DNA of 60,144 bases from an uncultured Candidatus Saccharibacteria bacterium (GCA_964490125.1 CAZBAJ010000006.1:1-60144); one strand, 5' to 3'; numbered from the stretch's first letter, positions 3,001 through 30,925 are shown. Notes: generated from the sequence alone by a model not told the origin. Program-made: numbers and translations.

Positions 3001-4484
3001 GCGCGCCAGGTATAGCCTTTAGGACAGATTTGGATACCGGTCTTTGGTCTTCTGGCGACAACACTTTGAATTTATCGACTGGGGCAACAGAAGCTATGCG
3101 GATTTCCAGCGCAGGATTTGTGGGCATAGGTACCACGGCTCCAACCTATCCGCTTTCCGTAGGAGGGGATAGCGCCCTCATTGCTAACGACACCGGTAAC
3201 CTAACCATTACCCCTGCGTCAAACCTAATAATAAGTAGCGGTAGTATTGGAGTGGGTACAACCGCGCCGGGCGCAAAGTTAGAGGTAGTTGGCGGGGAGG
3301 TTAGGGTAGCAACCTTGGCAAGTGCCAACTACTATGTTTGTGTAGACGCAAATGGCGAGTTATTTGAAAGCGCCACCGCCTGTGCCGGCTCCGATATTAG
3401 GTTAAAGGAAAATATTAATCCGTTTGCCTCGGCGCTTGAGGGTGTAATGGCCCTTAACCCCATCACTTTTAATTGGAAGAATAAGCAAGAATCTGGTTCA
3501 CAGTTAGAAGTTGGTTTTATTGCGCAGGAGATGGAAAAAATTTTCCCTCAAGTCGTGCGCACTAATCCGGATGGCTTTAAGGGAATAAAGTACGATGTTT
3601 TCTCCGCGGTGCTTACCAAAGCCATTCAGGAACAAGAACTTAAAATTTCAGGAATGGACGACTTTATGATGCAAACTAACCAAACTTTGGAGGCTCTGTC
3701 TACCACCCAAGAGGAAAATTCAAGGCAAATTGCCCAAATTCAATCTTTGTTGGATGTATTGGGAATCCAAGACCCGTCCCAGTCAAGCGAGTCGTCAGAG
3801 TCCTCACAGTCCGTCGGACTTGCTGGCATCCTAAATGTCAATCTGCTAAACAGTCTACAAACTATGTATGACAATATTGTCCAGCTAGTAGAGGCTTTAG
3901 GACTTAAACAGGTGGATGGGGAGCTTGTAGTAGAAAGCCCCATGACCGTTTTAGGTGACGCAAGTTTTGCGGATGTTAATATTTCTGGCGATTTAATGGT
4001 CGGACTGCTAGAAGTAAATTCTTTGGAGAACTCTATAAATGTAATTGGACCTTCCTGTGTTGGCACAGCAAGTGAAGAAGACAAAGCGACATTAAACGAC
4101 GAGATATGTAAATCACAGACAATATATTTGCAAAAGAACCTAGCTGGAAACATTAACATGTTTAACGGCGCAATTGTATTTAGTCCTAATGGAAACATTA
4201 CCGCGGGAGAAATTGACGCTAAAAAACTCGTTGCCCAGGTATATGGAATAAATAGCATCGGTCAAAGCGTAGGGGAGGGGGTCATTCCTGCCGGGGAAAC
4301 CAATATCGTTATCACCTCGTCAACTGCCCAAAGCAATTATAAAGTGTTTGTAACGGCAACCTCTAACACGGGGGGCGTGGAACTGTTTGTTAAAGAAAAA
4401 TCGCAAGGGGATTTTGTGGTCGCGCTTTCTGGAATCTCCGCCACGGATATAAAGTTTGACTGGTGGGTTGTTCGAGTAGATTAA
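3..4484 (+). CDS. Giant repeat-rich surface/tail-fibre-like protein with C-terminal peptidase S74 intramolecular chaperone domain; 5' end lies outside the window
   Basis: The frame of ORF 330..4484 is open back to position 3. Many VGIGTTxP repeats; S74 motif SDIRLKENI...LNPITFNWK...VGFIAQEME, followed by a coiled coil. Confidence 0.85.
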   Translation, partial: TITPASNLIINNGSVGIGNTSPSYALDVAGTGNFTGDLRLTGAFYDTSASAGTSGQYLKSTATGTAWATLTPGSETLPTGTEGQTLYYNANTSLWTASSSLFYDDVTSRLGVGTTAPAYKLDVNGDIRIASGSKLIGATQSFIDTNRHGFLNQTETSMSFDGTKIFTLADAGSGWSYYRSGIKYTITGNKTIDLTTVDNPLVDGTTYYIYIDSTTGALSAASSSWTLNDTKVPVATVLWNNTLTPKYQLAEERHTVLIDRRTHYWQHFLVGAKAVVAGAIDPASYALNTDTNVSKTFSIAQTTFADEDLVQTLSALPDPNGTAEDYVVFYRTGASTWAWKNSNMPFVYNVGNTNDRIQYDNNGTMTDSIANRWYNSYVLFTNFQGSARYVVIPGRNVFTSLANAQAEAPSSFSFAGFPVQEAQIAYRITWTTTNSTSQGKCRLAATPQSINLSAISTVSSGSSVDHNSLAGLQGGASNEYYHLTSAQQLGLTTVGAGYVPYATSEGVLGNSSIFETGGSIGIGTTSPGEKLEIVGNLKFSGTDPNVSTTTGFDFDLGDSAGSYNFDIRNSGDVNLLSINSLGGLILDGTTGSSGVFNFAPTTTTDAFTINKSGAGTGAVFRVNDAGAGDISPFIITSTGLVGIGTTAPGNLLEIVGTSNHLSLTYDADNYNVFSVASDGTLSHINNGTTVATYSESTINFNVPSSFNVVGDVNMAYNLVMENPVSSAISFAGAGTVATTSPTDNLNLTLSAANLGTVFVDDTLTLSGVIQPATDSTSAIKFQSALGANILSIDTTNGWVGVGTTSPTAKLTIARDFTGSGVTGYGFNVIATDSTNNANTDYGVYSSLALTGNAAKTGVGLYSSLSTASTTADTLIGADITTSTSGIITTGTRSIYGIRSQPASTGASTGGTTNVYGGYFKAGGTVGTGGTINSYGLYVANGTMNTTGTTKNIGLYVESPTGATTNYAAIFAGGNVGIGTATPLALLDVNGVGAFGLGTVSAPGIAFRTDLDTGLWSSGDNTLNLSTGATEAMRISSAGFVGIGTTAPTYPLSVGGDSALIANDTGNLTITPASNLIISSGSIGVGTTAPGAKLEVVGGEVRVATLASANYYVCVDANGELFESATACAGSDIRLKENINPFASALEGVMALNPITFNWKNKQESGSQLEVGFIAQEMEKIFPQVVRTNPDGFKGIKYDVFSAVLTKAIQEQELKISGMDDFMMQTNQTLEALSTTQEENSRQIAQIQSLLDVLGIQDPSQSSESSESSQSVGLAGILNVNLLNSLQTMYDNIVQLVEALGLKQVDGELVVESPMTVLGDASFADVNISGDLMVGLLEVNSLENSINVIGPSCVGTASEEDKATLNDEICKSQTIYLQKNLAGNINMFNGAIVFSPNGNITAGEIDAKKLVAQVYGINSIGQSVGEGVIPAGETNIVITSSTAQSNYKVFVTATSNTGGVELFVKEKSQGDFVVALSGISATDIKFDWWVVRVD

Positions 4485-4695: not shown

Positions 4696-5144
4696 TGCTA
4701 AACCCGTATCTACTAGATACATCTATTATAGTGATGTGCTTGCGCAACAAGCTCTCATTTGATCATCTTTTGTCGACTTATGGGGGTAGCGACATAACAT
4801 CGTCCATGGTGTGCCTGGCGGAGTTGTATAGCGGTGTTTTTAAGTCAGCAAGAAAAGAAGAAAACGAGCAAAAAGTGCTGGAGTTTTTTAGTGGACTAGA
4901 TGAAGTCTTTGGATTAGATGTTACGGTTGTTAAAAAGTTTGGGGAGATAAAAAATCAACTAGAAAAAGCAGGTAACAACATAGAGGACTTTGATCTTTTG
5001 ATAGCGGCCACTTGTCTAGCACATGGTTGCGTTTTGATTACATTAAATACTAAGCATTTTGAACGGGTTCCAAACCTAGCCACGGTTACGCCAAAGTTAC
5101 CATCTTTATCTTATGCACAAATGACGAGGTTTGGTAGGGTTTAA
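4695..5144 (+). CDS. vapC: VapC-family PIN ribonuclease toxin
   Basis: YLLDTSII, SSMVCLAELYSG, DFDLLIAATCL, LITLNTKHF motifs. Confidence 0.9.
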   Translation: MLNPYLLDTSIIVMCLRNKLSFDHLLSTYGGSDITSSMVCLAELYSGVFKSARKEENEQKVLEFFSGLDEVFGLDVTVVKKFGEIKNQLEKAGNNIEDFDLLIAATCLAHGCVLITLNTKHFERVPNLATVTPKLPSLSYAQMTRFGRV

Positions 5145-5219: not shown

Positions 5220-6734
5220 ATGCCCGCTGGTAAAAAACTTGCCTTACTCACCTTACTAACAGCTTTTTCTTTAGCAACTTTCTGTGTCACAGCATTGGCA
5301 ATTAATACCAAGTTTAATGGCACGACGGGGAAGATACGGGCGATAGGGGAAACGGGGATGGTGGACAAAATAGGGGAGGTGGCAGGACTTGAAACCACCT
5401 CGATGGGTCAGGGCATTTTAGAAGACCAAGTGGCTTGGCAATATACCCAACAAACGCCAGATTACACCGCCTCTTTTGCCGTCACCCAGCAACAAACCAT
5501 AGTCAAACTCCAAAAAGCAAATTTTACGGCAATTTTTAGCCAAAATTTGCAAAACCCCACTCTCCAAAGGGTGTACGATAAGGACAGTCAAGATAATTAT
5601 GACAACCAAACCAATCAGACTGGTCAACTAGAAAAAATCCAAAAAACCCAACAAGTCCACCCAAAGTACATTTTTACCGATACTGTCACCAACACTCAAT
5701 ATGTCTACCACATAACGCCCCAAGGTCTAAAAGAAGACATTATTTTTTCAAGTCGGCCAACCGCGCTATTTTTACCGCTTACTGTGCAAGCGCCGGGTTT
5801 AATTATGCAGTTTGACGACGGGGGGAAGCCTGTTTTTTACGACTCTGCCATGCAGGAGCAATTCCATTTAGAAGCGCCTTGGGCAAAGGACGCTAAGGGT
5901 AGCCAAACCACCGCTTTGTTTTATGCCCAGGCAGAACCGTCAAAAGACCCTAGTGTTAATAACCTTTCTTTGGTATTAGATACCGCGTGGTTTGCCGACC
6001 CGGCTAGAGTCTACCCGGTAATAGTGGATCCCATTGTTTTTTTTAGGGGTATTAATTTGCGCGGGGTTAATGTTAACCGCATTCCTCCAACCACCTGTAC
6101 AGCTTATACCGGTTGCGGTGAGGGTTTTGATATTACCTGCGTTCACACTAAATATAACGGTGTGGCACCTGTGGCAAAAACCGTAATTTATAAAACAGTG
6201 CAATCAAATTTAACAGGTACCAATATGTGCTGGCTGGCTCAAAATTTAGGGGCTACAGATCAAGCAAGCTCTGCTACGGACAATGACGAAGACTCCGCCG
6301 GTTGGTACTTCCAGTTTAACCGCAAACAAGGGTTTAAACATACCACCACCAGAACTCCCGCCACCACTTGGATACCAAGCATAAGTGAAAGCGCAAATTG
6401 GGCGGATGCCCAAAACCCTTGCAAACTGGAACTGGGCACAGATTGGCGGTTGCCTACCTCCACGGAGTGGCAAACGGCTGACGCTAATGGTGAGGTTGGC
6501 GGATGGGATAATTATAACGAGACTTACGCGTCCCCCCTAAAACTCCATGCAACCGGCTACATCGATAGCTCCTCTGGAGCCCTCGCCAATCGCGGTAGCT
6601 TCGGCAGCTACTGGAGTAGTACCCAGCACTCTGCTACTAACGGGTACTACCTCAGCTTCGCCAGTGGCAACAGCAACCTGAGTGGCAACAGTAAGGCCCG
6701 CGGTTTTCCCGTCAGGTGCCTTAGGAATCTCTAA
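5220..6734 (+). CDS. DGR target protein 1: N-terminal signal/TM segment, shared scaffold domain, C-terminal FISUMP-like CLec domain containing VR1
   Basis: CWLAQNLGA...WRLPT...YWSST...PVRCL motifs; the last ~60 codons align to TR. Confidence 0.9.
   Translation: MPAGKKLALLTLLTAFSLATFCVTALAINTKFNGTTGKIRAIGETGMVDKIGEVAGLETTSMGQGILEDQVAWQYTQQTPDYTASFAVTQQQTIVKLQKANFTAIFSQNLQNPTLQRVYDKDSQDNYDNQTNQTGQLEKIQKTQQVHPKYIFTDTVTNTQYVYHITPQGLKEDIIFSSRPTALFLPLTVQAPGLIMQFDDGGKPVFYDSAMQEQFHLEAPWAKDAKGSQTTALFYAQAEPSKDPSVNNLSLVLDTAWFADPARVYPVIVDPIVFFRGINLRGVNVNRIPPTTCTAYTGCGEGFDITCVHTKYNGVAPVAKTVIYKTVQSNLTGTNMCWLAQNLGATDQASSATDNDEDSAGWYFQFNRKQGFKHTTTRTPATTWIPSISESANWADAQNPCKLELGTDWRLPTSTEWQTADANGEVGGWDNYNETYASPLKLHATGYIDSSSGALANRGSFGSYWSSTQHSATNGYYLSFASGNSNLSGNSKARGFPVRCLRNL
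6548..6722 (+). repeat. DGR variable repeat VR1
   Basis: Ungapped 175-bp alignment to TR 11761-11935: 15 mismatches at TR adenines plus 5 non-adenine mismatches confined to 6552-6598. Confidence 0.95.
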
Positions 6735-6806
6735 CATGGTTGGTAGCGTACCTCTTAGTCCCGCCAAAGGCGGGACCTTGATTTATTTGTCAATTTGACT
6801 ATTTTG
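6723..6806 (+). repeat. 84-bp tail after VR1 (IMH, stop codon, hairpin), identical to 10622-10705
   Basis: Base-for-base identity AGGAATCTCTAA...GACTATTTTG. Confidence 0.95.
6758..6776 (+). promoter_or_regulatory. DGR target-recognition hairpin after VR1
   Basis: GTCCCGCC-AAA-GGCGGGAC, perfect 8-bp stem 35 nt after the VR end; absent after TR. Confidence 0.85.
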
Positions 6807-6852
6807 AATTTTTTCTCTCCCCCCTTGAATTAGCCAACGGGCTTTAGAAGAG

Positions 6853-6928
6853 TGTAAGAGCGGAAGGCGTGTACCCCAAAATGCCAAAAATCAATGTTTA
6901 CAATTAAAATAAAACCCGCTTTTGGCGG
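6853..6928 (+). repeat. Direct repeat, left flank of NYN module
   Basis: 6853-6904 matches 7623-7674 at 49/52; similarity continues to 6928/7693 with a 5-nt indel. Confidence 0.9.
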
Positions 6929-6930
6929 AC
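6911..6930 (-). terminator. Probable intrinsic terminator of NYN gene
   Basis: Minus strand CCGC-CAAAA-GCGG-GTTTTATTTT immediately after the NYN stop. Confidence 0.5.
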
Positions 6931-6931
6931 T

Positions 6932-7537
6932 TTAAGGTGAGTATGACTTGACGACATCTGCATCGTCAATGAGTATATTTTTACTCGTGGTGTATATCAG
7001 ACCCTTGTTGGGAGAGCTCTTGAAACCCAGATATACCACTTGGATTCCTCGTGCAGTAGCTTCTTTAATAGCGGGCTGAAGGTCGGAATCAGAACTGCAG
7101 AGTATAACAGTGGTCACCGCTTTGTCGCAAGCCGCTAATACTAAATCTACAGCGATTTTCACATCCACACCTTTTTCATTAAAAACATAGTGTGGATTAT
7201 TAGCCGTTAATGCTTTGCCGACCGTACTGGCTCTAACACTACCGGAAATGATGTACTTGTAACCCTTTTTTTCCAAAGTAGTTTTTAAAATACGCTGGAT
7301 TTTAATTAACTCCATCGACTTGTTCTTAAATGCTGGATGGAGCTGGATTTTTGCAGAATAATACCTATGCTCTTTAATTTTATAGTTGGCTAAAACGGTG
7401 GTAAATAATTTTACGATATCGATATTCAAGATGGTTTTGCTTGATACTGTAATACCGGCACCTCTTAAAACGCCCGTTACTTTGTGTCTAAAATTTTCTC
7501 CGTCTATGAACAGGAAGTTTGTATTTGGTATGGTCAT
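6932..7537 (-). CDS. NYN/LabA-DUF88 (PIN-like) ribonuclease
   Basis: FIDGENF, EKGVDVKIAVDL, SSDSDLQPAI motifs. Confidence 0.9.
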   Translation of the reverse strand: MTIPNTNFLFIDGENFRHKVTGVLRGAGITVSSKTILNIDIVKLFTTVLANYKIKEHRYYSAKIQLHPAFKNKSMELIKIQRILKTTLEKKGYKYIISGSVRASTVGKALTANNPHYVFNEKGVDVKIAVDLVLAACDKAVTTVILCSSDSDLQPAIKEATARGIQVVYLGFKSSPNKGLIYTTSKNILIDDADVVKSYSP

Positions 7538-7544
7538 ATTACAT

Positions 7545-7584
7545 AAAACCCCGCCGAGCGTTAAGCATAGGCGGGGCGTTGATA
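7545..7584 (-). ncRNA. Putative short terminated leader/antitoxin RNA upstream of NYN
   Basis: Between the promoter and the ATG, minus strand CCCCGCC-14 nt-GGCGGGG followed by TTTT. Confidence 0.5.
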
Positions 7585-7589
7585 GCTAT

Positions 7590-7618
7590 CTTATATCCTA
7601 GTTTTATCTTAAAGTCAA
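7590..7618 (-). promoter_or_regulatory. sigma70 promoter of NYN module
   Basis: Minus strand TTGACT (7618-7613)-17 nt-TATAAG (7595-7590). Confidence 0.75.
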
Positions 7619-7622
7619 GTTT

Positions 7623-7693
7623 TGTAAGGGCGGAAGGTATGTACCCCAAAATGCCAAAAATCAATGTTTACAATCAAAACCCACTTTTGGAGG
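7623..7693 (+). repeat. Direct repeat, right flank of NYN module
   Basis: Copy of 6853-6928, period 770 bp. Confidence 0.9.
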
Positions 7694-10633
7694 TTTTTTG
7701 CTATACTTATGTTAATGCCTAAAGTCAAAATAAAATTTATAGGACTGGCAGTAGTAACTGCTTTAATTATTGCCTTGATGTTTGCGTTTGTAGGTGTAGG
7801 GCTTGGGCTAGTAGGTAAAAATTTGCCTTTTGCCCGGTTCAATACTATCTTTGGGTTTAAACAGGGCATTTTTGACGATCCAAGAAAAGATAAAAACCTT
7901 ACCACCGATCAAATAAATGCCTTGTCTCTCCTGTCGTCAAACTACTTACAAACAGAGGTTGTCTCCAGCGGTAATACAACAATAACCTTTGCCACCACAC
8001 AAGATGCCGTCCACACCCGCATTAAGGAACCTAACTTTGAGGGTCTATTTATAGAACCCATGAATCAGCCAAAAATGGAGGTTTTGGGAAGTCAGTCAGA
8101 AAATCAGGTGGACAATCGCGACGACAATCAAACGGACAAAAAATCAGTCAACCAGTATGTTTTTACGGACAGTCAAACGGGGACTAAATTTGTCTATACA
8201 CTAAAAGAAGACGAGTTGAAGCAGGACATTATATTGCCCCAAAGTCCTCAAGCCAGCCAGTTTACGGTTTATGTTGTAACAAAAGGTATGGAAGTTGATA
8301 TTGATCAAAAGGGCAGGGCGGTTTTTGCGGACGCGCAAGGGCTTGCGCGGTTTATTTTAATTGCGCCGTGGGCAAAAGACGCGGGCGGTAGTGAAACCAA
8401 AAAGCTTTCTTATAAACTAAACCAGGCAATTTTGTCGCAGGAAGACTTAGCAAGCAGTACGACTTTAGCGGATGGGGCGGGTGTCGCAACAAAAGCAACA
8501 AATATACCCAATACAGTTAAGGACGAGCAACTTGGCGGGGGATTTTCTAAATCGTTAGACACCCAAAATGTCCAAAAATTAGTGGCAGAAGGAAGTCAGC
8601 TGTTTAACCTTGAACTTGTGGTGGATGAAGAGTGGTTAAAAAGTCCACAAAGGGTTTATCCCATAACCATAGACCCCAGCGTGCAAATTGGTACACCGCT
8701 TAATTATTCCCAGCAGTCCAAATACTGTCCGCCCGGCAATACAGAAACAAATTGTGATGCGCTATACCAGCCCGCGCCACTAGCCGAGTATTATTTTGAC
8801 GACGCCACGGGTACTACAGTTAAGGACTCTACCGCCAACGGTTATACGGGCACTTTTACGGGTAGCGGAACCGGTGGTACTACATGGACACGCCAGGGCA
8901 AAATTAACTTTGCCGGGCTTTTTAACGGCACAGACGACTTTGTGGATGTAGGCACAGGTCCTACTGGCATAAAAAGCGTGGGTTTTTGGGTGTATCCCGC
9001 CACCACCACGGAATATTTTGTAGACTTAAACGGCTCCGCTTATATTTGGGCAAACGCGGGCACGCTAACGGCAACAGGCTTTACCAGCCCGACTGTTTAT
9101 ATTAACGGCGTTAAAGCAACAACCATTGAGGCAAACAAGTGGCAGTATGTTGCGGTAACTTCTGCCACCGCTGTGGACGCCACAGATTTAGATTTAGGAC
9201 GACTAGAAGGCACGGATTATTTTGCCGGCAGACTTGACCACGCAAGGTTTTATAACTATGTAAGGACGCCAGCGCAGGTAGCGTGGGATTTTAACGCCGG
9301 CGCGCCTGTAACTTGGTACAAATTTAATGAAAACACAGGTACTGCTATTGGCGACTGGGGCGTTGGGGGGGATGGTTACCGTGGTAATAACTTAACTTTA
9401 ACCGTGGGAGCCGGGGGAACTTATGATACCGCAACCCAAGTTTGGGCAAACGGCAATCCGGGTAAAATTGCCATCTCTATGGATTTAGACGGCACAGACG
9501 ACTACGCTTCTACCGCCAATGTGGCACTGCTTGCTTCCAATTCTACTACTTACACTAATTTATCTTGGGGGGCGTGGGTTAAACCTAGGATAACCGTTAC
9601 CCGTACAATAATCCATAAAAATAATGAGTTTAGGTTAAGGCTAACGGATGTTTCTGTGCCATCTTGTCAAATATACGCAAGTAGCGCATGGCAGACGGGG
9701 GCGGTTTCCGGTGGCGTAATTCCAACAAATTCATGGTCACACATATTATGCGCTTACGACGGGGCAAATATAAAAGTGTATGTTAACGGGGTCTTGCGTG
9801 GTACACAGCCGTTAACAAACGCGGTAACTTCTACCAGCGCTACTGCCATAAATGTAGGACGGGACAGCGGTGGTAGCGAGTATTTTAGTGGGGCAATTGA
9901 TGAGGCCCGCGTGTACTCATACGCGTTAACACCTATCCAAGCCAAAACTGCTAAAAACGATGGCATTGTAGCCTATGGGCGCGCCCCCGTTACCGCGGAA
10001 CTTCCACAAAGTTTTATTTGTGGCAAACCCATTACTGTTCAACATGTGGCTAGTAACGGCGTTGCCCCGGTAGATAAAACCGTAAGTTACGGTACAGTGC
10101 TTACGGGTATTGGCGGTACGGGTGACAAATGCTGGATTACCCAAAATTTAGGGGCTACTAACCAAGCAAGCACGGTTAGTGACGCTACGGAGGCGTCCGC
10201 AGGGTGGTACTGGCAGTTTAACCGCAAGCAGGGCTACAAGCACGACGGTACTACCAGAACACCAGCTACTGCCTGGAATGCCACCGAGGATAACACTTAT
10301 ACGGGCTGGGACCCGGCAAAAGATCCATGCGCTTTAGAATTAGGTGCGGGTTGGAGGTTACCCACTTCCGCGGAGTGGACTGTAGCAGATGTTCCGTGGA
10401 CAACTTGGCAAACTCCCGGGCCCTGGGATTTACCATTAAGAATTCATGCAGCCGGCTACCTCGATAGCTCCTCTGGAGCCCTTACCTATCGTGGTACCTT
10501 CGGCTCCTACTGGAGTAGTACCCAGTCCTCTGCTACTAACGGGTACCGCCTCCGCTTCGGCAGTGGCTACAGCACCCTGGATTTCTTCAGTAAGGCCAAC
10601 GGTTTGCCCGTCAGGTGCCTTAGGAATCTCTAA
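7664..10633 (+). CDS. DGR target protein 2: TM anchor, shared scaffold, LamG/ConA-like domains, C-terminal FISUMP-like CLec domain with VR2; true start probably ATG 7715
   Basis: LamG-like motifs (WQYVAVT, FAGRLDHARFYNY, WSHILCAYDG, FSGAIDEARVYSYAL); C-terminus aligns to TR; TATACT box 7 nt before ATG 7715. Confidence 0.9.
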   Translation: MFTIKTHFWRFFAILMLMPKVKIKFIGLAVVTALIIALMFAFVGVGLGLVGKNLPFARFNTIFGFKQGIFDDPRKDKNLTTDQINALSLLSSNYLQTEVVSSGNTTITFATTQDAVHTRIKEPNFEGLFIEPMNQPKMEVLGSQSENQVDNRDDNQTDKKSVNQYVFTDSQTGTKFVYTLKEDELKQDIILPQSPQASQFTVYVVTKGMEVDIDQKGRAVFADAQGLARFILIAPWAKDAGGSETKKLSYKLNQAILSQEDLASSTTLADGAGVATKATNIPNTVKDEQLGGGFSKSLDTQNVQKLVAEGSQLFNLELVVDEEWLKSPQRVYPITIDPSVQIGTPLNYSQQSKYCPPGNTETNCDALYQPAPLAEYYFDDATGTTVKDSTANGYTGTFTGSGTGGTTWTRQGKINFAGLFNGTDDFVDVGTGPTGIKSVGFWVYPATTTEYFVDLNGSAYIWANAGTLTATGFTSPTVYINGVKATTIEANKWQYVAVTSATAVDATDLDLGRLEGTDYFAGRLDHARFYNYVRTPAQVAWDFNAGAPVTWYKFNENTGTAIGDWGVGGDGYRGNNLTLTVGAGGTYDTATQVWANGNPGKIAISMDLDGTDDYASTANVALLASNSTTYTNLSWGAWVKPRITVTRTIIHKNNEFRLRLTDVSVPSCQIYASSAWQTGAVSGGVIPTNSWSHILCAYDGANIKVYVNGVLRGTQPLTNAVTSTSATAINVGRDSGGSEYFSGAIDEARVYSYALTPIQAKTAKNDGIVAYGRAPVTAELPQSFICGKPITVQHVASNGVAPVDKTVSYGTVLTGIGGTGDKCWITQNLGATNQASTVSDATEASAGWYWQFNRKQGYKHDGTTRTPATAWNATEDNTYTGWDPAKDPCALELGAGWRLPTSAEWTVADVPWTTWQTPGPWDLPLRIHAAGYLDSSSGALTYRGTFGSYWSSTQSSATNGYRLRFGSGYSTLDFFSKANGLPVRCLRNL
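10447..10621 (+). repeat. DGR variable repeat VR2
   Basis: Ungapped 175-bp alignment to TR: 21 mismatches at TR adenines (all in AAY codons) and one T>G. Confidence 0.97.
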
Positions 10634-10705
10634 CATGGTTGGTAGCGTACCTCTTAGTCCCGCCAAAGGCGGGACCTTGATTTATTTGTCAATTTGACTA
10701 TTTTG
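10622..10705 (+). repeat. 84-bp tail after VR2, identical to 6723-6806
   Basis: Base-for-base identity. Confidence 0.95.
10657..10675 (+). promoter_or_regulatory. DGR target-recognition hairpin after VR2
   Basis: GTCCCGCC-AAA-GGCGGGAC. Confidence 0.85.
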
Positions 10706-10768
10706 TTTTTTTCCCCTACAATGCCCGCGGTTAGAGATAAACGCTAGAGCTCGCGTAACCACGGTTAC
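10694..10768 (+). repeat. 75-bp direct repeat (promoter plus leader hairpin), left flank of DUF3800 module
   Basis: 73/75 identical to 11545-11619; contains TTGACT-17 nt-TACAAT and GTAACC-AC-GGTTAC. Confidence 0.92.
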
Positions 10769-10794
10769 ATTTAACTGATGCCCCAAAAGTCACC

Positions 10795-11445
10795 ATGGAA
10801 AATGCCACAAAACCTAAAAGAATTTATATATTCCTTGACGAATCCGGCACCCTTCCCGATCCCAAAGATACCGTAGTTATTGTTGCTGCGGTGGGAACAG
10901 TTCAACCACAGCAACTATCTAGGGTAACCACTAAGACCAGAAGCCACTTACAAAAAGGTAAAAATAAGTCATCGGAAATTAAATTTTATAATGCTGGGGA
11001 TAAAACTCGCATTACCTTTCTTAAAGAACTTATGGAAAAAGACATCCAACTGTTTACTTTAACTATTGAAAAGCCGGGTCAAAGTATACTCGATACACCA
11101 GAAAACTTTGCTCTTTTATGTTGGCTTCTTTTAGAAGAGTGTTTTTTATTTTACGGTCAAGAAAATTACGAGGTAGTTTTTGACAAACACTTTCACAAGA
11201 AAACAGACAGAGAGGTTTTTGATGCTGGGCTTATGGAGTTAATCGGTAGAAAGCTCTCTATCATCCATGCGGATAGTGTCAATGACACGCGGGTAAATAC
11301 TGCCGATATGGTGGCAGGTAGCATTCTATACTATAGAACCGGGAAAAATAAACAGTTTTACGAGATGATTAAAGAAAAAATTATTAGCGAAAAAGTTTTG
11401 CACTGGAAAGTGGCAAAGAAAAGTCTATTTAGGTACGGAAAGTAA
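10795..11445 (+). CDS. DUF3800 domain protein (putative nuclease)
   Basis: N-terminal IFLDESG and C-terminal DS...TADMVAGSI motifs. Confidence 0.8.
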   Translation: MENATKPKRIYIFLDESGTLPDPKDTVVIVAAVGTVQPQQLSRVTTKTRSHLQKGKNKSSEIKFYNAGDKTRITFLKELMEKDIQLFTLTIEKPGQSILDTPENFALLCWLLLEECFLFYGQENYEVVFDKHFHKKTDREVFDAGLMELIGRKLSIIHADSVNDTRVNTADMVAGSILYYRTGKNKQFYEMIKEKIISEKVLHWKVAKKSLFRYGK

Positions 11446-11492
11446 CAAAATCTCGTCGAACCGATGCAAGCATCCATCCAAACGAGATAAGT
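11446..11492 (-). ncRNA. Putative small structured RNA convergent on the DUF3800 gene
   Basis: ATCTCGT/ACGAGAT 7-bp stem (11450-11488) enclosing GATGC-AA-GCATC; T4 tract follows on the minus strand; own promoter upstream. Confidence 0.6.
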
Positions 11493-11498
11493 GTGATA

Positions 11499-11527
11499 AT
11501 TCTATCAAGTGGATACATTAAAGTCAA
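11499..11527 (-). promoter_or_regulatory. sigma70 promoter for the DUF3800-adjacent sRNA
   Basis: Minus strand TTGACT (11527-11522)-17 nt-TAGAAT (11504-11499). Confidence 0.75.
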
Positions 11528-11544
11528 ATTTTAGTCTACACTCC

Positions 11545-11619
11545 TTGACTATTTTGTTTTTTTCTCCTACAATGCCCGCGGTTATAGATAAACGCTAGAG
11601 CTCGCGTAACCACGGTTAC
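11545..11619 (+). repeat. 75-bp direct repeat, right flank of DUF3800; contains the promoter of the TR-avd-RT transcript
   Basis: TTGACT (11545)-17 nt-TACAAT (11568-11573); 73/75 identical to 10694-10768. Confidence 0.92.
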
Positions 11620-11760
11620 GCTTGGAGAGCGTGTTAGAGTGTGGTTACCCACCCCGCTTTAGCGGGGTTAAAAAAGAAGACTACGCGTCTGGAAACTTAC
11701 CCGTAGTCTCGCAAAATTTGGTGCAACAGCCAAACATTAGTGGTGACTTTAGCGCTAGGT

Positions 11761-11935
11761 TGCAGCCGGCTACCTCAATAGCTCCTCTGGAGCCCTTACC
11801 AATCGTGGTACCAACGGCAACTACTGGAGTAGTACCCAGAACTCTGCTACTAACGGGTACAACCTCAACTTCAACAGTGGCAACAGCAACCTGAATAACA
11901 ACAGTAAGGCCAACGGTTTTCCCGTCAGGTGCCTT
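11761..11935 (+). repeat. DGR template repeat TR
   Basis: 49 adenines and 15 AAY codons in the VR frame; in-frame TAG directly upstream (non-coding); 3' end GGAGACTCTAA differs from VR AGGAATCTCTAA (IMH*/IMH). Confidence 0.97.
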
Positions 11936-12020
11936 GGAGACTCTAAGTCTTTAGCCCCTGCCTCCTGTCCAAGTCCTACCAAATTCTGTCCACCAAAATA
12001 TTATTATTAACTAAAAGCTT

Positions 12021-12404
12021 ATGGCACTATATACAGCCTTACCCGTCTATAAAAGAACCTACCAACTATTAATGGAGCTAATTACCACCTGCGCGCTTTT
12101 GCCCAGGCTGTACAAGCATACTTTTGGTGAACGCATTCAGGAGGAAGCCATAGAAATGGTCCTTGATATTTACAAATCCAACTCTTCTTACAGCAAGGTG
12201 GACTATATTGGCAAAGCCCGTGAGCATGTAGAAACCTTGCGCCTGCTTATAAGGCTTTTGCACGACACCAAGAAGATCACCCAAAAGCGCATGATTTACC
12301 TAAATACTTATATAGAGGACATTAGTAAGCAGTTAACGGGTTGGCAAAAAAGTAGTGGGACTATAAAGCCGTCCGATTTACCGGACTCGTTATCTACAAA
12401 TTAA
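12021..12404 (+). CDS. avd: Avd-like four-helix-bundle DGR accessory protein
   Basis: LPVYK...LPRLYKHTFGERI...LRLLIRLL...SKQLTGW pattern; located between TR and RT. Confidence 0.88.
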   Translation: MALYTALPVYKRTYQLLMELITTCALLPRLYKHTFGERIQEEAIEMVLDIYKSNSSYSKVDYIGKAREHVETLRLLIRLLHDTKKITQKRMIYLNTYIEDISKQLTGWQKSSGTIKPSDLPDSLSTN

Positions 12405-12412
12405 GACCAAAT

Positions 12413-13800
12413 ATGTCAAATATCGACAGACATACCAATCTAACCAACCACGCCAACCATACGCATATGCCTAATATGCCTACTAACAAGTTTGCTAATA
12501 CACCTAATACATCCAATACATCCGATACACCCAATTCAACCGCTTCTGGAGATCCCGCGGATTCTCTCATAAACGATCTTTTTACCGCGTACTATTGCGC
12601 CCGCAAAAACAAACGCAACACTTTTAATCAGCTAAAGTTTGAGTACGACTATGAAAGTAATTTGTTTAAACTTTACCGGCTTATTTTAAGTCGTACCTAT
12701 AAACCCTTGCCGGAAATTGCTTTTATTGTAAATAAGCCCGTAAAGCGGGAAATTTTTGCCGCGGATTTTAGAGACAGAGTCGTCCACCACCTGATATTTA
12801 ATTGTTTAAACCCTATTTTAGAAAAGTATTTTATTAACGACTGTTATTCTTGTCGGATAGGGAAGGGGACCTCTTACGGAATTAAACGCGCAGTTAAGCA
12901 TATGCGGGCGTCATCAAATAATTATACGGAGGATTGCTATGTTCTAAAGTTGGATATTCAGGGTTATTTTATGAGTATAAATAAGACTATTTTGTATGGG
13001 GCGGTTAAGGGTTATTTGGCTAAAGAAAAGGCTAAAAGGGGTGTTTTACCGTTTGACGAGGATTTGGTGGACTTTTTGCTAAAGGTGATTATTTTTAACG
13101 ATCCCACCAAAAATTGCCGATTTAAGGGTTGGCCACAGGACTGGTGCGGTCTACCAAAGTCCAAGAGCTTGTTTTATGCCGAGCCATGTTGCGGTTTGCC
13201 TATTGGTAATTTAACCAGTCAGCTGTTTGGCAATGTTTATTTAACAGGGTTTGACCATTTTGTTAAGCGAAATTTAGCCATTAACTATTACGGTCGGTAT
13301 GTGGACGACTTTGTTTTAATGCATACGGACGAGCAGTATTTAAATTCGCTTATACCCGTAATGTCTAGTTTTTTAGTGTCGGTTTAAAACTTACCTTGCA
13401 TCCTCATAAGGTTTATTTTCAACATTATGCCAGAGGACTAAAGTTTTTAGGCGTTATTATTAAGCCTGGCAGAATTTATATTGGGTCACGGGTTAAGGGG
13501 AACTTTTACCTCGCTATTATGGAGCAAAATAGGGTTTTAGATCAGCCGGGTTTGTGTCGGATCGAGTTTTCCCGTCAAGAGGAGTTTTCTTCACAATCGT
13601 TAGTTTTTAAGCAACGCAAGGATTGTAACACGGTTAATGTTGTTGCTCCTTCCGTGACGGAAATAAAGGGTTTTATTAGCGTCATGAATTCTTACCTAGG
13701 GTTGATGAAACACTATCAAACCTATAAATTGTGTCGTAAGTTTGTGCTTAAAAACCTAGACCCCTGTTGGTGGGATTATGTTTACTTAAAACCTTTGTAA
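12413..13800 (+). pseudogene. DGR reverse transcriptase split by one -1 frameshift (ORFs 12413-13387 and 13369-13800 in the -1 frame); ~462 aa if joined
   Basis: RDRVVHH, LKLDIQGYF, GLPIGNLTSQLFGN and YVDD in the first ORF; LTLHPHK...GLKFLG and NSYLGLMKH in the second. Confidence 0.9.
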
Positions 13801-14022: not shown

Positions 14023-14900
14023 TAGATATTAATTAGATGCCACCTAAATAGAGGTAAAGTTTTGCAACTGATCTTTTGTTTATGCAGAAGAATAAAATAT
14101 GCCCCAAAGGGCACATATTTAAACGAACTAAGTCCCGTATTCCGTCAATTTAAGATTGTTACTAGAGCAAATAAAGTATGACAAATGCTTGTTAGTTCAC
14201 TTATAAAAATACGCGAACTATTTCCGTCCTGTAATAACAACAAAACTCACATAATGTTAAAAAATAAGTGAACTATTTTGGGAGCCTGGTTTTAAGGTTG
14301 TCAAGATAACCTAAAAACACAGACACATAAAAACATATTCAAACACCCAAACAAACATCTAAATACAAAAACCTCCACCCAGCCACCCAAGATAAACAAA
14401 CACTCATATAAATACATACATACATACATACATACATACATACATACATACATACATACATACATAAACAGACAGATTATTAGACGGGTAATAAATAAGT
14501 AAATACAAAAATACAAACTAACCCAAACACCCAACAGCATAAACAACAAAAACCAAAATTAAATTAGAAAACTAAAACACCAAAACTAAAACACCTAAAA
14601 ATATAACTATTACTGCCAATATTAAACACTCCACCGCCGTGACCGTGATAACAGCCACCGTAGCCTATGATATTTAAGAACTAGGGTAGTTCGTTAATTA
14701 TTTTAGAAAACTAGGTATTTGCTTTAACAACAGCTTAAAAATAGTTCGCAAATAAATATAACTGAACAATGTCACAAATGTCATACAGTTAACGCCGTAG
14801 TAAAAGCCTTAAATCTATAAAAAGCAGTTTATTGTTCGTTTAAATATAGGGTCTAAGACCTAATAAAAAAAGAACCTGCGACGACAAAAAATACTATAAT
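14023..14900 (-). repeat. Long non-coding repeat element, copy A (inverted relative to B and C)
   Basis: Both arms match 16393-17255 in reverse complement; 14-bp inverted repeat 14115-14128/14834-14847; seven TAGTTC/GAACTA boxes. Confidence 0.88.
14413..14464 (+). repeat. (TACA)13 microsatellite
   Basis: 13 perfect tetramer units counted. Confidence 0.97.
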
Positions 14901-16084: not shown

Positions 16085-16158
16085 TGGCAGAGGCGGAGAG
16101 AATCGGACTCCCACAAATGGTTTTGGAGACCATTGTACTACCATTATACGACGCCTCC
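16085..16158 (-). tRNA. trnW: tRNA-Trp (CCA)
   Basis: Cloverleaf with anticodon arm ATGGT-CTCCAAA-ACCAT and encoded CCA; atypical T-loop TCCGATT. Confidence 0.9.
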
Positions 16159-16162
16159 CCGA

Positions 16163-16336
16163 TTACTTTAATTTTTGTTTTTCTTTGTGTGCCGTGGTTT
16201 TTCTGCAAGTCCTGCAGTATTTTTTAAGTTCCAGTTTTTCTGCGTCGTTTATTTTGTTTTTAGAAGTCACATAGTTGGACGACTTACAGACACTGCATTG
16301 CAAACCTATTAGCACACGATTTGTCTTTTTAGCCAT
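16163..16336 (-). CDS. rpmG: 50S ribosomal protein L33 (Zn-binding form), 57 aa, missing from the ORF track
   Basis: MAKKTNRVLIGLQCSVCKSSNYVTSKN...LELKKYCRTCRKTTAHKEK; precedes trnW as usual. Confidence 0.95.
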   Translation of the reverse strand: MAKKTNRVLIGLQCSVCKSSNYVTSKNKINDAEKLELKKYCRTCRKTTAHKEKQKLK

Positions 16337-16392: not shown

Positions 16393-17255
16393 TAGATAGT
16401 ATTGTTCGTCATCTTAGGTTCTTTTTGACTAGGTCATAGACCCCATATTTAAACGAACAATAAACTACTTTTATTAAATTTAAGGCTTTTACTACGGCGT
16501 AAACTTTATGACATTTGTAACATTGTTCGGTTATATTTTTTTTGCGAACTATTTTTAAGCTGTTGTTAAAGCGAATACCTAGTTTTCTAAAATAATTAGT
16601 GAACTACCCTAGTTCGTAAATATCACAGGCTACGGTGGCTATAATTACGGCTCTACAGGCATGCTTAACTTTCTTGGGTATTATTGTACAGTCTTGGTAA
16701 TAATAAGTTGTCTCGGTGTCTGGGTGCCTAAATGTGTTTGGATATGTATTTATTTAGGTTTTTGTTGTATTTGAGGGTTTCAGTAAGTACTCGTTTGTTT
16801 ATGTATTTAATTGTTATAGTAGCAATGTATTAATTTAAGTTTTGTTTGTACTGGGTGTTTGGGCAGAGATATTGCTATTTAGGTGTTTGAGTATGTATTT
16901 ATGTGTCAGCGTTTTTAAGTTGTATTGACAGCCTTAAAACTATACTCCCGACATAGTTCACTTATTTTTTAATGTCATGGGGATTTTGTTGTTATTGCAG
17001 GAAGGAAGTAGTTCGCGTATTTTAATAAGTGAACTAACGGATGATTGTCATACTTTATTTATTGTAGTAACAACTTTAGATTAACAAAACATGGCTATTA
17101 GTTCGTTTAAATACCTGCCTTTTGGGACATACTTTGTTCTTTTGCTTAAACAAAAGATCAGTTGCAAAACCTTACCCCTATTTAGGTGACAAATAATAGT
17201 ATCTAAAAAAGGCAGCTAAAAAAATGCCGTTTAGACGACATCAAATTAATATCTA
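16393..17255 (+). repeat. Long non-coding repeat element, copy B
   Basis: 13-bp perfect inverted repeat 16446-16458/17101-17113; outer 10/11 inverted repeat 16393-16403/17195-17205; seven TAGTTC/GAACTA boxes. Confidence 0.88.
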
Positions 17256-17925: not shown

Positions 17926-18001
17926 TGGAGCCCACTCGCGGAATCGAACCGCGGACCTACTCCTTACCATGGAGTTGCTCTGCCGGCTGAGCTAAGTGGG
18001 C
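17926..18001 (-). tRNA. trnT: tRNA-Thr (GGT)
   Basis: Cloverleaf, ACTCC-ATGGTAA-GGAGT, GTTCGATTC, CCA. Confidence 0.95.
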
Positions 18002-18014
18002 CCGTCAAACAAAC

Positions 18015-18095
18015 ACCAAATGGTGCCGAGGATGATCCGCCCTGGTGGGCGTGCTCTCCTCATCACCATTTGGATTACCAAATGGTGCCGAGGAT
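18015..18095. repeat. 19-bp direct repeat of the tRNA-Tyr 3' end (att-like)
   Basis: ACCAAATGGTGCCGAGGAT at 18015-18033 and 18077-18095. Confidence 0.8.
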
Positions 18096-18168
18096 AGGAT
18101 TCGAACCTATGAAGGCTTGCGCCAACAGATTTACAGTCTGCTCCGTTTGGCCACTTTGGTACCTCGGC
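18083..18168 (-). tRNA. trnY: tRNA-Tyr (GTA)
   Basis: Cloverleaf with long variable arm, GCAGA-CTGTAAA-TCTGT, CCA. Confidence 0.95.
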
Positions 18169-18174
18169 ATAATG

Positions 18175-18249
18175 TGGAGCCATCTCCGGGATTTGAACCC
18201 GGGACCCACGGTTTACAAAACCGTTGCTCTGCCGCTGAGCTAAGATGGC
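18175..18249 (-). tRNA. trnT: tRNA-Thr (TGT)
   Basis: Cloverleaf, ACGGT-TTTGTAA-ACCGT, CCA. Confidence 0.95.
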
Positions 18250-30553: not shown

Positions 30554-30925
30554 ATGCCACAGTTACAAACCGCCTTCGCCATTGGAAACAGTGTTGCCGT
30601 AACTATACCTAAAAGACTGGGTGTTTTGCCGGGTTTTAGATATAGAAATGTTCCGTCAAAAGGTAAAAGAATAGTTTATGAACCCGTAGAGGAGGGGTTT
30701 GCTACCGCTAGGAGTGTCTCTACAAAAGGATCCGATAAAGCCGTTTTCCAATCTTCAAGCGAGTCTTCCCTTAGGAGAAGCGCAACCAAGTCGAAAAACG
30801 AGCAGTACAAACAATACTTAGAGTATTACAAGGCGCGCGCTGGTGCAATAAAGCTCAATATGACGACAAAAGAATTTATGAAAATTAAAAAATACTGCCA
30901 CGATCATTTTTATGAAGAAGGATAA
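30554..30925 (+). CDS. AbrB/MazE-family antitoxin
   Basis: FAIGNSVAVTIPKRLG. Confidence 0.75.
   Translation: MPQLQTAFAIGNSVAVTIPKRLGVLPGFRYRNVPSKGKRIVYEPVEEGFATARSVSTKGSDKAVFQSSSESSLRRSATKSKNEQYKQYLEYYKARAGAIKLNMTTKEFMKIKKYCHDHFYEEG

Follow-up and report, generated by a model that had tools for sequence, protein, structure and literature searches.

A conserved slippery heptamer at a frame break inside the reverse transcriptase gene of a clade of diversity-generating retroelements, and its possible role as a brake on hypermutation

The window analysed here, a 60,144-nt stretch of DNA from an uncultured Candidatus Saccharibacteria bacterium (CAZBAJ010000006.1:1-60144; all coordinates are counted from its first letter), carries a complete diversity-generating retroelement (DGR) at positions 5220-13800. 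The element, whose features all lie on the + strand, comprises two target genes with variable repeats (VR1 and VR2), a template repeat (TR), the accessory variability determinant avd, and a reverse transcriptase (RT) gene whose reading frame is broken. The main target gene (7664-10633 in the list of open reading frames, or ORFs; 989 aa from the first ATG, with the public gene call, retrieved by exact look-up, starting at 7709) encodes LamG and Fib_succ_major-type domains (Pfam Laminin_G_3, 7.9e-31), and its protein forms a singleton cluster. VR1 (10447-10633) constitutes the 3' end of this gene and is 87% identical to the TR (11761-11947), which matches both variable repeats. The second target gene (5220-6734; 504 aa, also from the ORF list) ends in VR2 (6548-6734), aligned to the TR at 87.7% over 187 nt by a blastn search of the TR against the window. 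As is typical of DGRs, both VRs end their ORFs and differ from the TR at TR adenines; the mismatches at adenines and at other bases number 23 and 1 in VR1 (core), and 17 and 5 in VR2. The higher non-adenine count in VR2 may reflect less recent homing or an error-prone RT.

Downstream of the TR lie avd (12021-12404; 127 aa; Pfam bAvd, E = 1.1e-12, 48.8 bits versus a curated cut-off of 40) and, adjoining it, the RT gene, which starts with an ATG at 12413. The RT scores above the Pfam RVT_1 cut-off, its closest solved relative is the Bordetella bRT (8UB7, E = 3.4e-27), and it carries the DGR-type motifs IGNLTSQLF (the [IVL]GxxxSQ motif, fingers/palm) and YVDD (YxDD). An uninterrupted RT frame, which surveys require of a functional DGR, is however lacking. 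Frame 0 encodes part A of the enzyme (12413-13387; 324 aa, delimited by the ORF list, Pfam RVT_1 and the 8UB7 alignment), which covers the fingers and the palm through motif C (an intact YVDD at 13298-13309) plus 26 residues, and ends ...MSSFLVSV (...YVDDFVLMHTDEQYLNSLIPVMSSFLVSV) at a TAA stop (13385-13387). Motif D (LHPHK), motif E (FLG) and the thumb (NSYLG...YKL...WWDYVY) are found in the -1 frame, in a part B of 141 codons that runs from AGT at 13375 (13375-13800) and aligns without gaps to intact homologs. The break in the frame thus falls within the catalytic domain of the RT, past motif C and ahead of motif D.

The -1 frame contains a TAG at 13366-13368 and is then open from 13369 to a stop at 13798-13800, reading TTT TTT AGT GTC GGT TTA AAA and yielding FFSVGLKLTLHPHK...FLG...NSYLG. 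Because of this TAG and of the frame-0 stop, any crossover between the two frames is confined to 13369-13384, and within this only possible stretch lies, in X_XXY_YYZ phase, the slippery heptamer T_TTT_TTA (13369-13375), composed of a T6 tract (13369-13374) and an A, which we propose as a -1 shift site. The frame-0 codons here are AGT (13367-13369), TTT (13370-13372), TTA (13373-13375), GTG, TCG, GTT and TAA, such that the stop occurs three codons past the heptamer and overlaps a Leu codon (TTA) of the -1 frame. A -1 shift at the heptamer generates a 462-aa protein that aligns without gaps to intact homologs of 393-408 aa, keeps the Phe-Leu found at the junction throughout the family, and gives an alignment with 8UB7 (E = 3e-27) that is continuous across the junction. 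A preliminary description of this DNA had reported the split at an in-phase T-TTT-TTA, with YVDD intact and the same -1 continuation, all of which we confirm; the sequence it gave for the junction was also correct, whereas its codon coordinates were out of phase by one base. It mentioned neither the two DGR targets nor the clade-wide presence of the shift site reported below.

Several features of the surrounding sequence were considered and set aside. A second in-phase heptamer, T_TTA_AAN (13338-13344; TAT TTA AAN, encoding Tyr/His-Leu-Asn/Lys), is found 30 nt upstream of the junction, and also in the relatives L002 (about 1716) and L015 (about 1629). It occurs in intact relatives with no tie to a frame change, and a shift on it in the window would meet the TAG at 13366, so that it is probably incidental. 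Reassignment of stop codons is irrelevant, as the stops involved are both TAA and TAG and the downstream motifs lie in a different frame. A scan of the window found no other gene split at a homopolymer: the five other candidates were +1 offsets, and the two inspected (24610/24627 and 53781) were ordinary gene junctions, the candidates at 30887 and 40627 being outside the inspected set.

The frame break is shared by the nearest relatives. The proteins closest to the conceptual fusion protein stop at the same spot (P0001, 96% identical; P0069, 78%), and the junction AGT TTT TTA GTG TCG GTT TAA is present in the window and in loci L001, L041, L042 and L049. L002 reads CGG AGT TTT TTA CTT ATA GGT TAG, its -1 frame going on as TYRLELKLHPRK..., while L047 and L015, the latter recovered from a metagenome scan with tblastn frames passing from 1 to 3 across the junction, read GAT TTT TTA GCG GTG ACT TAA. 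In a further group, the junction is GCT TTT TTA GTG AGC ... TAG (L043, L045 and L046) or GCT TTT TTA ATG ATC ... TAG (L044), with five codons between GCT TTT TTA and TAG and a -1 frame reading SEHRGLEVHPNKVYFQHYTKGLLFLGVIIKP...SYLGFL. The heptamer and its phase are therefore invariant across the frameshifted lineages while the flanks differ, and the frame-0 stop follows the heptamer by 3 to 5 codons in all relatives with the break. T6-A in phase with a -1 continuation was found in 12/12 frameshifted assemblies, representing 8 sequence lineages; these assemblies came from NCBI, JGI, ENA and Logan and may overlap in their samples, so that the 8 lineages are the safer count. Within lineages the tract is uniform, with T6 in all six assemblies of the window lineage and in both of the L015 lineage. 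An exact look-up of the window's part A in other assemblies returned no match.

A profile search with part A alone (A3) gave a consistent result. Its three best clusters (579-589 bits) are all truncated, with the remainder scoring <=489 bits, and four further truncated clusters (P0154-P0157, the proteins of L043-L046) end in ...AFLVSVEV, ...AFLVSIEV or ...AFLMIVAV. Among the eight clade proteins found in this way, seven are truncated at the junction and one, P0035, is in frame; the other short matches that we inspected have no break at the junction. In about 25 intact relatives (50-62% identity) the heptamer is absent at the homologous codons, which read AAC TTT CTA, AAC TTT CTG, GAC TTT TTG, AGG TAT TTA and similar. 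In a distance-based neighbour-joining tree, all T-tract loci fall in one clade (bootstrap 200/200 with P0035 included). The T6 loci without P0035 are not recovered as monophyletic (0/100), because the in-frame P0035 is nested among them, next to L044. This 415-aa protein is encoded on contig L048 (SRR8371833), where the junction region (1410-1530) reads GCT TTT TTT AAT GAT CGT CGC GGT TTA, a T7 tract with Phe-Phe at the junction. L048 and L044 share 93-94% nucleotide identity (dS about 0.33) and are identical around the site except for T7 versus T6. L048 is the only in-frame member of the clade, T7 thus occurring in 1 of 13 assemblies, and neither T5 nor T8 was seen among these 13. By parsimony, T6 is probably the ancestral state and T7 a derived one-step repair, with a single origin of the break.

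How much of this could arise by chance can be estimated. In-phase X_XXY_YYZ heptamers are found at about 1.5% of codons in the window RT gene, and we estimate that one would appear in a 5-codon stretch of a single sequence with a probability of about 5-7%, which is only mildly unlikely. For T_TTT_TTA, given X-Phe-Leu and the codon usage of the clade, the estimate is about 0.07 per independent lineage. In light of the comparative data, a chance origin of the coincidence is untenable.

Purifying selection acts on both halves of the gene, as judged from pairwise Nei-Gojobori estimates of dN/dS (omega). Comparisons among the deep lineages show saturation or near-saturation at synonymous sites (pS 0.61-0.85), and part B has a pN of 0.23-0.33, compared with 0.22-0.35 in intact relatives. 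The L043-L048 subclade permits an estimate of dS (0.32-0.88), and omega there ranges from 0.09 to 0.28 in part A and from 0.08 to 0.21 in part B. The corresponding values for RT genes that lack the interruption, divided at the equivalent position, are 0.06-0.18. Part B is free of stops over 86-152 codons in all frameshifted lineages, and a second lesion was found in none. Constraint on the gene, the out-of-frame half included, therefore matches that on a normal DGR RT (omega 0.08-0.28 in both halves). A relative whose RT has in fact decayed, L007 (see below), provides a negative contrast. The tract itself also seems to be maintained: indels in homopolymers are far more frequent events than point substitutions, so that T7 must often appear, and its rarity therefore points to selection favouring T6. 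That a one-step T7 allele exists yet is rare, with no T5 or T8, argues that T6-A is the selected state.

A separate line of evidence concerns the activity of the element after the break. L043 holds a whole DGR, with its VR (4969-5144) and TR (5388-5563) differing only at adenines. When the window and L043 TRs are compared, 20 of the differing positions are non-adenine in both, and at 19/20 of these the base in each VR is that of its own TR. It is not credible that a TR and its VR underwent the same substitutions in parallel, so transfer from TR to VR must have gone on after the window and L043 lineages separated. Retrohoming after the split is also retrohoming after the ancestral break; this timing assumes that the break is ancestral, on the basis of parsimony and of the monophyly of the clade. 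Working RT is supplied either by the T6 allele itself or by rare variants derived from it. Of the two possibilities raised in the preliminary description, a programmed or phase-variable throttle on mutagenesis draws support from the shared break, from the selection on both halves and from the TR/VR transfer, with slippage at the ribosomal, transcriptional or DNA level, while a simple 1-nt loss or sequencing error is contradicted by independent assemblies from different pipelines and samples, all of which have T6. The intact close relatives that would have marked a recent pseudogene are not what we find, since the closest relatives share the break and both halves are under purifying selection.

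The break is most probably a built-in brake on mutagenesis. We propose that ribosomes produce the full-length RT by shifting to the -1 frame at a low rate on U_UUU_UUA, and that this would throttle hypermutation; we hold this specific reading about equally likely to be right or wrong, while slippage of some kind, at the ribosomal, transcriptional or DNA level, is very probable. In the proposed mechanism, ribosomes reading straight on would stop three codons later, producing a truncated RT without motif D, motif E and the thumb that is presumably inactive. A minority of ribosomes would slip one base back on U_UUU_UUA, with tRNA-Phe and tRNA-Leu re-pairing on UUU_UUU (tandem slippage), and would go on in the -1 frame to make the full-length RT (...SSFL-SVGLKLTLHPHK...). 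The RT would in this way be kept scarce, and the adenine-directed hypermutation of the two target genes throttled. Some one-base realignment on the T tract is needed because separate translation of part B is unlikely (see below); we infer that the slip occurs on the ribosome rather than on RNA polymerase or during DNA replication. Its efficiency is presumably low, and the benefit would lie in limiting mutagenesis or RT toxicity. A brake would be adaptive under a ribosomal, transcriptional or DNA-level mechanism alike. U_UUU_UUA is an established -1 shift site, used by HIV-1, and is shift-prone in E. coli constructs (PMC5009743).

Several observations weigh against ribosomal frameshifting. In E. 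coli constructs U_UUU_UUA is much weaker than A_AAA_AAG (PMC5009743). In agreement with the preliminary description, which saw no strong stimulatory hairpin, neither folds of 75 nt on each side in three lineages nor RNAalifold on 4 and then 7 lineages gave a stable or conserved hairpin or pseudoknot 5-10 nt downstream of the heptamer; fold z-scores ranged from -0.8 to +1.2, and the sole consensus helix begins about 48 nt away and is GU-rich. The aligned upstream codons contain no conserved Shine-Dalgarno-like (GGAGG-like) motif. The in-frame T7 relative, L048, indicates in addition that tract changes occur at the DNA level and could be the real switch. A stimulatory element is common at -1 frameshift sites but is not obligatory, and since no stimulator was found, the efficiency is probably low, which is consistent with a brake. 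Ribosomal protein bL9 helps to hold the reading frame. Candidate-phyla-radiation bacteria are often without this protein (PMC9297842), and if the hosts of these DGRs belong to them, stimulator-free shifting could be intrinsically higher. The broader proposition is that a clade of DGRs, probably in small-genome uncultured bacteria, uses the U_UUU_UUA signal of HIV-1 within the catalytic core of the RT. The signal would there serve as a brake kept by selection, linking the rate at which target proteins are hypermutated to the condition of the translation apparatus. This proposition is tentative and falls slightly short of an even chance.

The same tract could instead act through DNA phase variation, in which slipped-strand mispairing would convert T6 (RT off) into T7 (RT on) and back, a sub-population running the DGR while most sampled populations have an OFF consensus. 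That L048 carries an in-frame T7 and the 93-94% identical L044 a T6, the restoring change being exactly a change in tract length, fits this model, and a tract switch would also keep both halves of the gene under selection. The tract behaves, however, as stable rather than hypermutable: it changed once on a tree whose synonymous sites are saturated, T7 occurs in 1/13 assemblies with no T5 or T8 and nothing longer than T7, and the window and L015 lineages are T6 throughout (6/6 and 2/2). Contingency tracts usually have 8 nt or more, and T6 is short for one. Each bout of homing would further need T6 to change to T7 and back to T6 in one lineage, and no other gene of the window was found split at a homopolymer (two candidate sites inspected). 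We regard phase variation as unlikely, though well short of negligible. Programmed transcriptional slippage, in which RNA polymerase adds a U on the T6/A6 run and U7 mRNAs encode the full-length RT (...SSFF-SVGLK...), draws on the conservation and selection data that also favour ribosomal frameshifting; it fits the lack of any mRNA stimulatory structure in the folds examined, and the T7 of L048 shows that the Phe-Phe version is tolerated. Yet a run of 6 nt is short when productive bacterial sites have about 9 A or T (PMC5009743), and slippage of this type needs neither the trailing A nor the X_XXY_YYZ phase, both of which are strictly conserved, although common descent could explain both. We therefore consider it improbable.

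Two further explanations seem very unlikely to us, to a similar degree. The RT may be non-functional, whether as a pseudogene, through recurrent independent T7-to-T6 inactivations, or through assembly or sequencing error. DGR surveys do report many RTs inactivated by frameshifts or stops beside VR/TR pairs that are still clean (PMC3521204, PMC5758913), VR2 has its 5 non-adenine mismatches, and a real pseudogene exists among the relatives: L007 (2366-2470, from a Bacteroidetes metagenome-assembled genome), where a -1 shift at the matching query position had suggested another instance of the break. At the DNA level, however, L007 has YVDN for YVDD, and its -1 break is located at CCC TAA, which precedes the homologous site by six codons, and has no slippery heptamer. 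Against a dead RT stand the agreement of 12 assemblies from four sources (NCBI, JGI, ENA and Logan) on T6, the lack of any second lesion with part B open over 86-152 codons in all, a part B omega (0.08-0.21) equal to that of intact RTs, the concerted TR-VR change after the lineage split, and the single origin of the clade. Alternatively, restart or coupling could yield parts A and B as separate proteins that associate non-covalently to form an active enzyme. Gene callers do annotate a separate part B, and the window has a TTG at 13396, 9 nt past the frame-0 stop. This restart codon is nevertheless not conserved; in L002, L015 and L043-L046 the first ATG, GTG or TTG of the -1 frame lies in or after FLG, which would delete motif D. 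The break also falls within a continuous structural element of the palm (8UB7 alignment), and the T7 allele fuses the two parts.

Ribosomal frameshifting at the DGR site would have a close parallel in HIV-1 gag-pol, where a -1 shift on the identical heptamer is needed for RT, ribosomes that do not shift stop soon after, and the shift keeps the dose of RT low (PMC5009743). The retroviral shift lies between gag and pol, with the whole RT downstream, whereas the DGR site interrupts the catalytic domain of the RT itself, between motifs C and D; the retroviral frame-0 product, Gag, is functional, whereas that of the DGR is a truncated RT; and HIV has a downstream stem-loop stimulator, whereas none was found at the DGR site, whose host is bacterial. 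Among bacterial systems, the orfA-orfB transposase genes of the insertion sequences (IS) IS3 and IS1, and dnaX, likewise use a -1 shift on an X_XXY_YYZ heptamer with a short frame overlap, and the IS3/IS1-like sites likewise keep down the amount of a DNA-modifying enzyme that belongs to a mobile or selfish-type element and may be harmful. These sites are mostly A_AAA_AAG with Shine-Dalgarno-like and/or hairpin stimulators (PMC5009743), in contrast to the DGR site, at which no stimulator was found, and OrfA has a regulatory function of its own while DGR part A is presumably useless alone. The 'savior indel' in a G-run of herpesvirus thymidine kinase is also similar, being a homopolymer indel at which low frameshifting gives just enough product while the unshifted product is useless (PMC5009743); it is, however, a recently selected drug-escape mutant, whereas the DGR state is ancient and conserved across a clade with saturated synonymous divergence. 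Phase-variable contingency genes likewise have a coding homopolymer that sets the frame, as with the one relative that is in frame by a +1 tract, but the DGR tract has 6 nt and is nearly invariant across the clade, with no T5 or T8 seen.

Frameshifted RTs beside VR/TR pairs with almost only adenine mismatches are also known from 'inactivated' DGRs (the DiGReF set, PMC3521204 Fig. 4C; Wu et al. 2018, PMC5758913), and have been taken as recent inactivation or sequencing error (PMC3521204) or discarded (PMC5758913). The break described here differs from these in being clade-wide, on a slippery heptamer and under selection. The literature that we searched in full text contained no description of a DGR RT subject to programmed frameshifting or to phase variation. 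Cellular control of DGR activity is little understood, and the site, if it acts as proposed, would be the first described built-in expression brake for a DGR. Some catalogued "inactive" DGRs would then be regulated rather than decayed, and a bacterial retroelement would join the reverse transcriptases dosed by -1 frameshifting, with the heptamer of HIV. T6, T7 and slip-dead alleles would in that case offer a testable handle on the cost-benefit balance of targeted hypermutation.

The DGR includes further elements outside the RT gene. VR1 and VR2 are followed by an identical flank that includes the hairpin GTCCCGCCAAAGGCGGGAC. The copy 3' of VR2 (6758-6776), a GC-rich hairpin of the form GTCCCGCC-AAA-GGCGGGAC and of the target-recognition type, is an exact repeat of that 3' of VR1 (10657-10675), which has an 8-bp stem with 7 GC pairs. 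Between VR1 and the TR, the segment 10694-11619 holds a DUF3800 gene (10795-11445; Pfam DUF3800) flanked by two 75-nt direct repeats (10694-10768 and 11545-11619; 97% identity), each with a sigma70-like TTGACT-17-TACAAT sequence (promoter-like match 10/12). In L043, the DUF3800 gene is found upstream of the target gene (L043 1546-2214). The repeats look like a duplicated promoter segment that arrived with the gene insertion, and the second copy is in a position that would suit it to driving TR-avd-RT.

Additional variation was observed in the RT proteins. The N-terminus of the window RT (12413-12570) carries a 50-residue extension rich in Asn, Thr, Pro and His, which other lineages do not have and which differs by a 3-aa indel between the window and L001. 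In L043-L048, part A carries insertions after motif 2a, which vary in length and reach about 50 aa, and the C-terminal region of part B, lacking the WW.YVY tail, falls about 35-50 residues short of that in other family members. Frame changes at other points were seen in L005 (4176-4198; +1, near residue 115) and L016 (about 4250-4460; near the C-terminus), and may represent assembly errors or decay.

Immediately downstream, the window carries about 1.12 kb of inserted non-coding DNA when compared with L001 (13792-14913). This insertion, also present in L041, L042 and L049, begins in the last codons of part B, such that the end of the protein changes from ...YLK to ...YLKPL. It contains no ORF, and Rfam gave no credible match for it. 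Its + strand is rich in A and C, it includes (ATAC)12 at 14416-14465, and at 14826-14897 it contains an inverted 83% copy of 16396-16466. The neighbouring gene content is ordinary, with a tRNA-Trp directly adjoining rpmG (L33) at 16085-16336 and a Thr-Tyr-Thr tRNA cluster at 17926-18249.

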